A stretch of 64,000 nt of DNA from Clostridia bacterium (GTDB lineage: Bacteria > Bacillota > Clostridia > UBA1212 > UBA1255), in NCBI GenBank assembly GCA_045546695.1, contig JAZQDE010000008.1:27782-91781 (forward strand), written 5' to 3'. The notes under the pieces are model-generated. The model searched no databases. It had not been told where the DNA came from and saw nothing but the letters and a program-made list of their open reading frames with translations. Shown here piece after piece: positions 58,180 through 61,926 of the stretch. How positions within the stretch are numbered: the stretch's first letter is position 1; the number at the start of each line of letters is the position of its first letter. Made by a program: the position numbers and the translations under genes.

Positions 58180-60297
58180 TTAAGTCAACAATTTTTCAAA
58201 CATTTCGAGCATGTTTCCCATAAGGTCTTTTGCATATTCTTCATTAAAACTTTCAACGAAAATATTGAATGTATTTCCGCTTTCATCACATGAAATATGT
58301 GCGTCAGCTTGCGGTTTTTCTATGCAAATACCGTCAATAATTTCTCCTTCACACATATTTTTCAACTCTTTTAACAACTCTGAAGGGTTTCTTGATGTGT
58401 TTATACGTGTTGCGGTAAATTTATAAATTTTAGGTGACAATTGCGTGAATGTGTAAAAATTTTCACCTTCATTATTCAAATAATATTCAAGACATGACAG
58501 TCCGAGATCAAAAGCAAGGTCATCTGTCATCATTAAATATTGTGAATACACACCGGGAATATGCATAAATTTTTCCATTTCCGCCATAATATCTCCCCTG
58601 TTATTTCCACATTTTATAATGTATTTATCATATTTTTTACATATATACGTGGTTGTGAGCAATGAATTTACAGGAGCAAACAATGGTGCATCAGGATACA
58701 TTTTTACAGTAAGGAAACCGATTATTGCCTGTTTTTGTGAAGAAGAAAAATTATTACCGACATAATTCAGATTCCTGTACGGGCAACTGAAAATTTTCAT
58801 AAGTTCGGCAATATAATAATCCTCTGCATCACTTAGTTGTTCAACAGGAAGTATTCCATTTTTAGGTGCATAAGAATAATCTCCTATACGATATATTGAT
58901 AAAAGCTTTTTTCTTTCATTTTTTGACAAATCATTTCCTTTATTGTTTAAAAAAATAACTCTGCTGTTTTTTCCACCCGATATATAAACACCGCCGTCAG
59001 CAAGACCGCTTCTTATCATCCATCTGACAACCGGTAGCGAATTTATACTTGTTTTAACCTGAACTGATGTGGCCGCAAGTCCTGTTTTTATTCCATATGA
59101 AATCATCTGCGCAGCTCCATCATTATCATTTCCAACAATGCATGAACTTGAATTGCGAAGAAAAGTACCAAAAGCTGCACCAAGCTTTACAGTAAAATCA
59201 GGCGAATAGTTGCCTACCGCAGAGACGCCATCATTTTCAAAAACAGGAGTTTTGGCATCAAAAGAATCTTTAATAACACCATTGATTATTGTGTCTTTCA
59301 ATATTATGGTTGCCGGCCAGACTTTCGTACGAGGTTTTGTTTTTACATTGTTTTCCAATGTGGAATCAGAGCCGATTATTGATGAATCAAGATTGCAGCC
59401 GGACATAATGGTTACATTATTACAAATAATAGAATCCGTTATATTTACATCGTTTTCAATTTTTGAATTTTGCCAGATAACAGTATCCTTTATTATAACG
59501 TTTTCGCCGATTGTACACTCGTCACCGATTATACAATTCTGAATTAAAGCACTGTCTGATATATGACAATTCTTACCAACGAATGCTCTTTCTCCGGTCT
59601 CATTGAGTAATAACAAATTAGTGTTTTTATATGATTTATAATCTCCTATATCACACCAGAATGCGGGAGTTTCAAAAGTGTTTATTCTATCATTGTTTAT
59701 AAGCATTGCAGGGAAAATATCTCTTGCAAAGTCCTGTTCTTTCTTTTCTTCACAATAACTCATCACAGCCGGATTGACTATATATATCCCAGTGTTAACA
59801 AGATTTCCCAATGTTTCATTTGTCGCAGGTTTTTCAGTAAATCCAACAACACAATTATTTTTATCTGTCAGAACAACACCATATTCAGACGGATAATTGA
59901 CCTTTTTGGTAATTATTGTAATTTTATTATCGTTTTTCAGATGGAAGTTTATAGCAGCAGATAAATCAATATCTGTCATTGCGTCACCACTGATTACAAG
60001 AAAATCAGAATCAATGAAATCCTTACAGTTTCTGACACTTCCGGCTGTACCAAGCGGTGTGTTTTCAATGTAATATTCTATGTTATTTTCCGGAAAATAA
60101 AGTTCAATCGTATCTTTTACAGTCTGTGGTAAATATTTTAATGTTATTGCAATATCCGTGATGCCGTTTTTATAAAGTAAATCTATAATATGAACTATAA
60201 CAGGTTTGTTCATTACCGGTACAACAGGTTTTGCTATGTTTACAGTAAGAGGTCTTAATCTTGTACCTTCCCCGCCTGCCAATATTATTGCTTTCAT
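58180..60297 (-). CDS. Multidomain sugar-1-phosphate nucleotidyltransferase (NTP-transferase plus hexapeptide beta-helix plus phosphohexomutase-like C-terminal region).
   Basis: N-terminus MKAIILAGGEGTRLRPLT is the G-x-G-T-R-L signature. A central left-handed-helix repeat region follows. Length is 705 aa. Confidence 0.7.
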   Translation of the reverse strand: MKAIILAGGEGTRLRPLTVNIAKPVVPVMNKPVIVHIIDLLYKNGITDIAITLKYLPQTVKDTIELYFPENNIEYYIENTPLGTAGSVRNCKDFIDSDFLVISGDAMTDIDLSAAINFHLKNDNKITIITKKVNYPSEYGVVLTDKNNCVVGFTEKPATNETLGNLVNTGIYIVNPAVMSYCEEKKEQDFARDIFPAMLINNDRINTFETPAFWCDIGDYKSYKNTNLLLLNETGERAFVGKNCHISDSALIQNCIIGDECTIGENVIIKDTVIWQNSKIENDVNITDSIICNNVTIMSGCNLDSSIIGSDSTLENNVKTKPRTKVWPATIILKDTIINGVIKDSFDAKTPVFENDGVSAVGNYSPDFTVKLGAAFGTFLRNSSSCIVGNDNDGAAQMISYGIKTGLAATSVQVKTSINSLPVVRWMIRSGLADGGVYISGGKNSRVIFLNNKGNDLSKNERKKLLSIYRIGDYSYAPKNGILPVEQLSDAEDYYIAELMKIFSCPYRNLNYVGNNFSSSQKQAIIGFLTVKMYPDAPLFAPVNSLLTTTYICKKYDKYIIKCGNNRGDIMAEMEKFMHIPGVYSQYLMMTDDLAFDLGLSCLEYYLNNEGENFYTFTQLSPKIYKFTATRINTSRNPSELLKELKNMCEGEIIDGICIEKPQADAHISCDESGNTFNIFVESFNEEYAKDLMGNMLEMFEKLLT

Positions 60298-60487
60298 ACA
60301 ATCACATCCTTTATGACATATTTTGGGAAGGTTCGTGATTTAATATGTGTGGCAATTCATGGAAAAAAAGCTTGTACTTTATTCCATAATGGTGTAAAGT
60401 GTGTAAGTCATCAATTGATGTACCGACAGTTCGTTTGTACCATCCTGTCGCAAATAAAAACCAGGACTGCTTACTATATAAATTTTT

Positions 60488-60532
60488 GTAGCCCTGCATA
60501 TTGATGCAAGGCTATTTTTTTTGAAAGGTATT
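60488..60532 (+). terminator. Intrinsic terminator/attenuator immediately upstream of the VUT transporter gene.
   Basis: 9/10-bp hairpin tagccctgca-tattga-tgcaaggcta followed by TTTTTTTT, 5 nt before the ATG at 60537. No + strand gene ends here, so it is a leader attenuator. Confidence 0.45.
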
Positions 60533-60536
60533 TAAA

Positions 60537-61274
60537 ATGTTTATACGCCGGGTAAAAAACGAAATAAATGAAACAAAAATCTTGTTGAGATCTATTCCTG
60601 CAACAGTTGTTTCTCTTTTTGTCGTAAGTGTAATATGTATGAATCTACTTGCAAACAAAACGCTTGTTCAAACTGAATGGATTGCCCTTGACGGCGGTAT
60701 TTTAGTATCGTGGCTTTCTTTTATGTGCATGGATATAATTACCAAATATTTCGGTCCGAAAGCCTCAAACAGAATTGCAATCCTTGCATCAGGTATAAAC
60801 CTTCTGACATGTCTGATTTTTTATATTGCAAGTATCATTCCGTCAAACGCTGATGATTACGCGGCTTTTGACAGGATTCTCGGAGGCACGTGGTTTATTC
60901 TGCTGGGAAGCACAATCGCATTCTTGTCTTCTGCGGTTATCAACAATTTTCTTAATTGGATAATCGGAAGTGCGTTCAGGAAGAATCCGGATGGAAAGGC
61001 CGCTTTTGCAACACGCACGTACGTTTCTACTTTTATCGGGCAATATCTCGACAATTTTATATTCTCAATAATTGTATTTGTTATATTCGCACCCATTTTC
61101 TGGAATGGTTTCCATTGGACTATTCTTCAATGCGCGATGTGTGCCCTTACTGGCGCAGTTGCCGAACTGATAATGGAAATCATCTTTTCACCGATTGGAT
61201 ATCGCACAGTAAAACGCTGGCAAAATAAAAAAATCGGTCAGGAATATCTGAATTTTGTTAAAAAGGAGCAGTAA
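60537..61274 (+). CDS. VUT-family (YhhQ-like, DUF165) queuosine-precursor transporter.
   Basis: 245 aa with 6 TM helices. The N-terminal pattern ...TVVSLFVVSVICMNLLANK... resembles YhhQ/Vut_1 proteins. Confidence 0.6.
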   Translation: MFIRRVKNEINETKILLRSIPATVVSLFVVSVICMNLLANKTLVQTEWIALDGGILVSWLSFMCMDIITKYFGPKASNRIAILASGINLLTCLIFYIASIIPSNADDYAAFDRILGGTWFILLGSTIAFLSSAVINNFLNWIIGSAFRKNPDGKAAFATRTYVSTFIGQYLDNFIFSIIVFVIFAPIFWNGFHWTILQCAMCALTGAVAELIMEIIFSPIGYRTVKRWQNKKIGQEYLNFVKKEQ

Positions 61275-61275
61275 T

Positions 61276-61926
61276 ATGAATGTTTTGATCACTGGTACAT
61301 CACAAGGAATCGGTCAGGCTATCGCAACAGCTTTTTTACGTGAAAATCACGTTGTATATGGTATCGACAGGCAAAAACAGACAATTTTTCACGATAATTA
61401 TATTCACTATTGTATGGATATTAGAGATTATGAATATTTGCCGGAAATTTCCAATCTGAACATTTTAATCAACAACGCAGGCACTCAGAACGAAGCAGAT
61501 ATTGATATCAATCTAAAAGCTTTAATTCATATAACTGAAAAATACGGAATTCAGGAAAACATTAAGTCAATTCTCAACATCGGCTCCGCAAGTGGACACA
61601 CCGGTTCTGAATTTCCGGAATATTGCGCGAGCAAAGGCGGTGTGCTGGCTTATACTAAAAATGTTGCAATGAGAGTCGCTGTATATGGAGCGACGTGCAA
61701 CAGTCTTGATCCGGGCGGCGTAATCACTCCTTTAAATGAATGCGTTATTAATGACGAAATTTTGTGGAAACAAATTATGGATGAGACTCCACTTAAAAAA
61801 TGGGCAACTACAGAAGAAATAGCTGACTGGGCATATTTTCTTACACTAAAAAATACTTTTTGCACAGGTCAGTGCATCGTCGTCGACGGCGGAGAGTCTA
61901 TAAACAGACATTTTATCTGGAAATAA
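61276..61926 (+). CDS. Short-chain dehydrogenase/reductase (SDR) family oxidoreductase.
   Basis: MNVLITGTSQGIGQAIA is the Rossmann TGxxxGIG motif. NNAG and the catalytic Y...K (YCASK) are present. Start moved to the ATG at 61276, which has RBS AAAGGAG. Confidence 0.7.
   Translation: MNVLITGTSQGIGQAIATAFLRENHVVYGIDRQKQTIFHDNYIHYCMDIRDYEYLPEISNLNILINNAGTQNEADIDINLKALIHITEKYGIQENIKSILNIGSASGHTGSEFPEYCASKGGVLAYTKNVAMRVAVYGATCNSLDPGGVITPLNECVINDEILWKQIMDETPLKKWATTEEIADWAYFLTLKNTFCTGQCIVVDGGESINRHFIWK

Follow-up and report, generated by a model that had tools for sequence, protein, structure and literature searches.

The leader of a VUT-family transporter gene in a clostridial genome very probably contains a transcriptional riboswitch that belongs to the queuosine regulon and acts as an OFF switch. 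This riboswitch most likely senses preQ1 and would be a divergent, type-I-like relative of the preQ1-I class. Its element is strongly conserved, its P1 stem covaries, genes of queuosine biosynthesis and salvage lie behind it at many loci, and an intrinsic terminator follows it almost everywhere.

The leader and its conserved element

In the window, which here means the whole 64,000-nucleotide stretch of DNA that was analysed, a divergent intergenic region of 239 bp (60298-60536) separates a minus-strand gene encoding a sugar-nucleotidyltransferase/phosphomutase fusion (58180-60297) from the start of the Vut_1 gene at 60537. A preliminary description, made from the sequence of the window, had put this region at 240 bp, in front of a YhhQ-like gene, and had named it a candidate preQ1-class riboswitch. 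The region is real, and the candidate is supported by the associated que genes, the covariation of P1 and the terminators. A putative sigma-70-type promoter can be read from the plus strand at 60372-60400 (-35 TTGTAC, 60372-60377; 17-nt spacer; -10 TAAAGT, 60395-60400). It is not listed by a consensus promoter scan, and the assignment draws in addition on homologous leaders, in which TTG...TATAAT is found at a matching distance, 10 to 25 nt 5' of the element.

The intrinsic terminator hairpin occupies 60488-60515 on the plus strand (GUAGCC-C-UGCAU / AUUG / AUGCA-A-GGCUAU). Its 11 Watson-Crick pairs and single G.U pair, interrupted by a C/A mismatch, make a stem of 11 to 12 bp where 10 bp had been counted before, and it folds with an energy of -13.9 kcal/mol (z = -3.6 compared with shuffles). 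Stable and G+C-containing, the hairpin runs directly into a U8 tract (60515-60522), as is characteristic of intrinsic terminators. This U-run ends 14 nt before the ATG rather than the 5 nt given in the preliminary description, with a ribosome-binding site (GAAAGG, 60523-60528, plus strand, 8 nt before the ATG) in between. The internal mismatch is probably the reason why a simple scan for terminators did not pick up the hairpin. No plus-strand gene ends within 60298-60536 and, on the minus strand, no T-run follows the hairpin; it is thus a terminator of the leader, and its earlier designation as an attenuator holds. A hairpin and T-run follow within 200 nt in 125 of the 128 distinct copies of the element for which the downstream sequence is long enough, with a median of 96 nt between the start of the element and the T-run.

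Two successive hairpin and T-run elements lie between the aptamer and the ribosome-binding site in the VUT leaders L003, L004, L006, L026, L029, L035 and L077 (numbers refer to the homologous loci). The sequence of the first terminator in these leaders, GGCUUUGCGUUUUGCAAAGCC, is kept across species and is also found 3' of the queC-type copies L131, L149 and L188. When the entire intergenic region was folded as a nested minimum-free-energy structure, the result told little (z = -1.3); such a fold is misleading here because of the proposed pseudoknot. Two small leader ORFs (63 aa on the plus strand and 62 aa on the minus strand) were rejected, as the conservation is of RNA type: the stem covaries and the loop is invariant.

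The conserved element itself is a predicted preQ1-I-like aptamer of 47 nt at 60423-60469 on the plus strand (CGACAG-UUCGUUUGUACCAUC-CUGUCG-CAAAUAAAAAC-CAGGAC). Its core pattern occurs once in the window, compared with 0 occurrences expected from 100 shuffles. The 5' strand of stem P1 (CGACAG, 60424-60429) pairs with the 3' strand (CUGUCG, 60445-60450). Between them lies the 15-nt loop UUCGUUUGUACCAUC (60430-60444), which starts with UU(C), ends with UC and hardly varies among the 37 copies located by way of protein homology. The C at 60444 is a candidate for the base that pairs with the ligand. The A-rich L3 tail CAAAUAAAAAC (60451-60461) departs from the family consensus UUAAACAAAAC at four positions (C26, A27, U30 and A31). 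Among 101 distinct copies, A30 is found in 93 and C or U at position 31 in 99, compared with U30 and A31 in the window, whose copy departs furthest from the others in this tail and has the lowest score among the transporter loci. Next comes CAGGACUGC (60462-60470), which would serve both as the 3' strand of pseudoknot helix P2 (CAGG) and as the 5' strand of an anti-terminator. Directly 5' of the aptamer, an optional P0 hairpin (CAUC-AAUU-GAUG, 60409-60420, plus strand) is predicted by folding, and hairpins of differing sequence occupy the same position in L003, L013, L024, L077 and many metagenome copies.

A covariance model (R1) was built from an alignment (A1) of 47 distinct copies. With this model the window copy scores 68.5 bits (E = 2.5e-14) and the transporter-locus copies 68 to 77 bits. 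In P1, 98.9% of cells are paired, compared with 28 to 38% in slid controls, and none of 500 shuffles reached the observed covariation score. The closing pair is found as C:G (25), A:U (13), G:C (3) and U:A (2), with a mutual information of 1.13 bits; in addition, A:U is swapped for G:C in L150 and a U.G pair occurs in L142. Covariation with changes on both sides is confined to two of the six pairs, the core being otherwise near-invariant. P1 (CGACAG/CUGUCG) is supported by this covariation, which the preliminary description had proposed to look for in homologous leaders. The stem that it had itself picked out, UCCUG...CAGGA (60443-60447 / 60462-60466) with an adjoining A-rich stretch, is real and lies inside the conserved element, but it is probably an alternative or pseudoknot pairing and not P1.

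For P2, the 3' strand Y37-R38-G39-G40(-R41) is compatible with three mutually exclusive registers, none of which shows changes on both sides, since the loop is invariant. In register (a), C15-C16-W17 pairs with the 3' strand as CC(A)/(A)GG (72% paired), and both U17:A38 and U17.G38 occur as variants; G38 is seen only with U17, and the extra U of the L009 form (see below) gives CCA/UGG. Register (b) involves U18-G22 (UCCUG/CAGGA) and is 99.1% paired, with all changes keeping the pairing; as it overlaps the top of P1, it would represent an alternative conformer or a shorter P1. Register (c), formed by Y9-U10-U11-G12 (YUUG/YAGG), is 97.9% paired, and its site is where P2 sits in solved preQ1-I structures. 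Like the loop, the interior of P1 is near-invariant, and all three registers fit the data.

Distribution of the element and the genes behind it

Homologues of the transporter, 75 to 84% identical, number in the thousands across Clostridia. Eighty genome loci (L001-L080) were chosen by transporter protein homology alone. In 36 of them the element is present near-unchanged, always on the sense strand and 76 to 275 nt 5' of the start codon; together with the window these give 37 copies free of search-pattern bias. Metagenome contigs were scanned with a degenerate pattern in which P1 and several tail positions were left free and 19 positions were fixed, so the invariance seen within the metagenome set is partly circular. 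The 37 protein-homology copies show the same invariance. The scan gave at least 120 loci; of the 120 listed, 117 lie 5' of genes other than the VUT transporter and short-chain dehydrogenase/reductase (SDR) pair, two lie 5' of this pair and one is a chance match (L137). More than 150 copies were found in total, and the sequence of the family can be written as [N]GACAG-UUCRYUUGUACCWUC-CUGUC[N']-WWAAAYAAAAC-YRGGRC.

The VUT-SDR cassette is found without the riboswitch in 44 of the 80 loci (for example, L014, L015, L020 and L040), and no Rfam preQ1 match was obtained in the 20 of these 44 that were searched. Riboswitch-free loci have a promoter-like TATAAT 30 to 40 nt from the ATG. In L070, a Gut-1 RNA (RF01706, 78.8 bits; 2428-2504) lies directly 3' of a tRNA and just 5' of the VUT-SDR cassette. 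A scan of IMG/VR viral contigs gave three matches, one by chance and two at que operons. On the contigs L208 (819-3260) and L209 (1674-4720), both catalogued as viral, the riboswitch is followed by queD-queE-(folE)-queC-queF; these may be bacterial fragments or phage-carried 7-deazaguanine genes.

Among the matches listed, queD-queE-queC-queF lies behind the element at about 27 loci (including contigs that end early; 22 have all four genes) and queD-queE-folE-queC at about 26 (19 with all four). Other targets among these matches are operons with queC first, canonical YhhQ transporters, and an IU-nucleoside hydrolase with an ECF S component. The encoded proteins exceed the curated cut-offs of NCBIfam for QueD (92 vs 89.25), clostridial QueE (310.6 vs 260.1), the QueF-II preQ1 synthase (177.7 vs 86.9) and QueC (160.6 vs 150.3), while transporters behind the element score 112.9 and 204.1 with TIGR00697 (cut-off 50.95). 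Pfam agrees, with matches at the N-termini for QueC, GTP cyclohydrolase I, radical SAM and nucleoside hydrolase proteins. Like preQ1-I riboswitches, the element is thus located in the 5' leaders of queuosine biosynthesis and salvage genes, and from these downstream associations it can be regarded as a cis-regulator of the queuosine/preQ1 regulon. Control of yhhQ genes by preQ1 riboswitches is already known (PMC5372724). No queuosine genes turned up in the rest of the window.

In L168 and L181 the element lies 5' of a gene encoding an IU-nucleoside hydrolase, followed in L168 by one encoding an ECF S component, for which NCBIfam gives the CD3073 family as best match (82.2 bits against a cut-off of 180, which it does not reach). 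This arrangement resembles the queuosine-nucleoside salvage genes of Clostridioides difficile. L181 also encodes an SDR homologue, 50% identical to the SDR of the window, which is convergent to the IU-nucleoside hydrolase gene, 1640 to 2275 nt 3' of the motif and on the minus strand relative to it; the contig ends at this gene.

Relation to preQ1-I riboswitches and the proposed switch

At gathering thresholds, Rfam 15 found only a T-box leader in the whole window (RF00230, 52554-52797, minus strand, 112.8 bits, E = 3.9e-24) and nothing in the leader studied here. The preliminary description had proposed a search with the preQ1 models RF00522, RF01054 and RF02680. At E ≤ 10 these gave no match to the window copy, whether on 60200-60650 (451 nt) or on 60400-60530 (131 nt), and none to the consensus copy L107, nor was there a match at gathering (39 bits for RF00522) with the preQ1 models in 40 homologous loci. 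Matches to SmY, the L10 leader, PyrR and SAM-V, obtained in E-value mode, were dismissed as noise from the terminator or from A/U-rich sequence. By the family's own covariance model, the element is not a member of RF00522, whose consensus is aGuGG-UUCGuAAaCcUC-CCaCu-AUAAAAAACUAAGG with a loop of 12 nt. RF00522 fails on the window copy because of three extra loop nucleotides, a P1 of 6 bp and a tail that is ~3-4 nt longer.

Loci L009 and L056 carry a form (GGACAG-UUCGUAACCAUC-CUGUCA-UUAAACAAAAC-UAUGGGC) with a 12-nt loop, UUCGUAACCAUC, of the UUCGUUACCAUC type. L009 scores 39.7 bits with R1 and, over the full model length, 22.6 bits with RF00522 (E = 0.0038, below the gathering threshold of 39); sequences of the L009 type are the only ones here that RF00522 recognises. 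Sequence comparison places this form, as an intermediate, between canonical preQ1-I and the element of the window. In L009 (409-2844) the 12-nt-loop riboswitch is followed by a four-gene operon encoding a 165-aa membrane protein, a 102-aa protein, a VUT transporter and an SDR. As in L009, the VUT-SDR pair of L056, where the 12-nt-loop element lies at 1121-1165, ends a four-gene operon.

According to a 2024 review, type I is marked by a UU that follows the P1 5' strand, a UC that precedes the P1 3' strand, an A-rich tail in which a C is conserved, and a G-C pair topping P1 (PMC11625349). The element keeps all of these; its UU at 60430-60431, its UC at 60443-60444 and, in the tail CAAAUAAAAAC, its C at 60461 are invariant in the 37 protein-homology copies. 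Its core measures about 43 to 47 nt, compared with ~34 nt and a loop of 11 to 12 nt in preQ1-I. To discard the riboswitch for want of a model match, as the refutation criterion of the preliminary description would have required, would be wrong. The link to preQ1-I comes through L009, and the shared type-I signature nucleotides add to it. The element probably works like a preQ1-I riboswitch and is probably a relative of that class. No description of this variant was found in a literature search, though the type-I alignment of McCown 2014, which reportedly has 1577 members, may already contain such sequences.

With the type-I preQ1-I riboswitches (RF00522; Carnobacterium antarcticum, PDB 8fb3), the element shares a small P1-hairpin aptamer, the UU and UC flanks, a G-C pair atop P1, an A-rich 3' tail whose conserved C precedes Y-A-G-G, and the link to queuosine genes. 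It differs from them in its loop of 15 rather than 12 nt (with an extra UUU/UUUG after UUCG), its P1 of 6 rather than 5 bp, its tail of 11 rather than 7 to 8 nt, the presence of CAGG instead of UAAGG in most copies, and its proposed mode of action, which is to terminate transcription and not to mask the Shine-Dalgarno sequence. The type-II preQ1-I riboswitch of Bacillus subtilis queC, likewise from the Bacillota, resembles it in the optional P0 hairpin 5' of the aptamer, in a P2 3' strand that doubles as an anti-terminator strand and in a ligand that favours the intrinsic terminator. However, it has AC rather than UC before the P1 3' strand, an aptamer of 34 nt and a canonical P2 (UAG/CUA). 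The type-III riboswitch of Escherichia coli yhhQ also controls a queuosine-precursor transporter of the COG1738/VUT family, but it belongs to the Pseudomonadota, acts translationally by burial of the Shine-Dalgarno sequence, and combines a pyrimidine-rich loop with an AC specificity motif; its transporter is only distantly related to that of the window and has no SDR partner. The preQ1-III riboswitch of Ruminococcaceae queT (RF02680) has the regulon, habitat and taxa (gut Clostridia) in common with the element. In contrast, it is about 100 nt long, with an HLout pseudoknot and stems P1-P5, and its model gave no match here.

We propose that transcription starts a few nucleotides past the promoter at ~60372-60400 and that the nascent RNA folds into an H-type pseudoknot aptamer (60423-60469), with a 6-bp P1, a 15-nt loop and the A-rich tail lying along P1, in which a short P2 would join the loop with CAGG (60462-60465). 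With ligand bound, P2 would hold CAGG, the terminator at 60488-60515 with its U8 tract would form, and polymerase would stop 14 nt before the start codon. With no ligand, CAGGACUGC would pair with GUAGCCCUG, the 5' arm of the terminator (60488-60496), permitting read-through into the genes for the VUT transporter and the SDR. The logic of such a switch would be that of the B. subtilis queC riboswitch. The anti-terminator CAGGACUGC (60462-60470) / GUAGCCCUG (60488-60496) has an energy of -8.3 kcal/mol as a fold (z = -2.1) and -10.4 kcal/mol as a duplex (z = -2.75), and its register of CAGG, one unpaired A and CUG recurs in L003, L046, L088, L107 and L131. Since the complementarity over all loci is weakly significant when compared with shuffled arms (median z = -0.6), this pairing is something we infer rather than assert.

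Three other explanations were weighed against a preQ1-sensing, type-I-like riboswitch. It seems unlikely that the element represents a new class that recognises a compound of the queuosine pathway but arose by convergence, with no structural relation to preQ1-I, and in which another pseudoknot or a triplex would be built from UCCUG/CAGGA and the long U-rich loop. Such a class would fit the lack of an Rfam match at E ≤ 10, the loop of 15 instead of 12 nt and the near-invariant sequence of P1, which suggests constraints beyond pairing; the almost fully paired helix 60443-60447 / 60462-60466 (99.1%), with only pairing-preserving changes, overlaps the top of P1 and is not a feature of preQ1-I. However, the form found in L009 and L056 aligns end to end with RF00522, with UUCG..UAA..C..UC and AAAACUA.GG in common, and it also matches R1. 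Type-I signature nucleotides stand at equivalent positions, and the extra tail U of L009 breaks the alternative helix while creating the CCA/UGG pairing. Slightly less probable again is a riboswitch of the same family with another 7-deazaguanine ligand, be it preQ0, queuine, queuosine or, as in type I, two stacked ligands. Every known riboswitch with type-I signatures binds preQ1, and preQ0 more weakly (PMC11625349), and the C before the P1 3' strand is as in recognition of preQ1 or a guanine face. Against another ligand, too, about 27 operons among the matches listed end in queF, whose product is preQ1. In its favour, about 26 biosynthetic operons among them have no queF in their first four genes. 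Control of salvage genes (the nucleoside hydrolase with its ECF S component, and the VUT-SDR pair) would suit another ligand, as would the binding of two ligands by type-I preQ1-I riboswitches (PMC8752633).

We consider it most improbable that no small molecule is sensed, the hairpin being a constitutive attenuator, one dependent on a protein or sRNA, or a terminator of antisense or divergent transcription. Despite the fact that the terminator is stronger than the anti-terminator on thermodynamics alone (-13.9 vs -8.3 kcal/mol) and that no Rfam riboswitch matches, a 45-nt sequence found in many genera, at different loci and with different genes of one pathway, is the signature of a metabolite riboswitch. 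In addition, the minus strand has no T-run after the hairpin, and there is no conserved leader peptide.

The transporter-SDR cassette and the queuosine regulon of Clostridia

The gene at 60537-61274 on the plus strand encodes a VUT-family transporter of 245 aa (Pfam Vut_1, 98.8 bits vs 27.2). Its earlier assignment to the YhhQ family stands as far as Vut_1 is concerned but not at the level of the YhhQ equivalog TIGR00697, with which it scores 44.5 bits, below the cut-off of 50.95. It is 26 to 28% identical to the canonical YhhQ-type (TIGR00697) transporters found behind the same riboswitch and belongs to a distinct subfamily. The gene for the SDR (216 aa, 61276-61926, plus strand; Pfam adh_short) starts 1 nt past the transporter stop codon, and an SDR gene lies 3' of the transporter in about 72 of the 80 loci, with 74 to 82% identity and in otherwise unrelated neighbourhoods. 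From this arrangement the two genes are predicted to be co-transcribed as a two-gene cassette, which bears out the suggestion of the preliminary description that the leader may control both.

The SDR contains the motifs TGxxxGIG, NNAG and YxxxK, and an Asp after the second β-strand, which is an NAD-type pattern. Searches of PDB and NCBIfam for a clue to its function gave only generic FabG-like relatives, and no description of an SDR in queuosine salvage was found in the literature. It is possible, though we regard it as doubtful, that the VUT-SDR pair is an unrecognised module for salvage of queuosine precursors and that the enlarged aptamer may be a fourth preQ1-I subtype. If so, a compound related to queuosine would enter the cell through the divergent VUT transporter, and the NAD-type SDR would convert it to a usable base. 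For example, the SDR might oxidise the cyclopentenediol of queuine, releasing preQ1, as an alternative to the radical-SAM lyase QueL. A fourth subtype would have its own P2 architecture or ligand stoichiometry.

As a natural relative of preQ1-I whose loop is expanded by 3 nt and which has a competing helix, the element would help to test how far the smallest riboswitch fold tolerates insertions. It would also be an abundant form of preQ1 riboswitch in gut and rumen Clostridia that has been missed by Rfam-based annotation, so queuosine regulons in these Clostridia are under-annotated. The search for missing transporters and enzymes of queuosine salvage is an active one (PMC11130926). The element may be used as a marker with which genes can be assigned to queuosine metabolism, and such a marker would tie the uncharacterised transporter-SDR cassette to the salvage of queuosine precursors.
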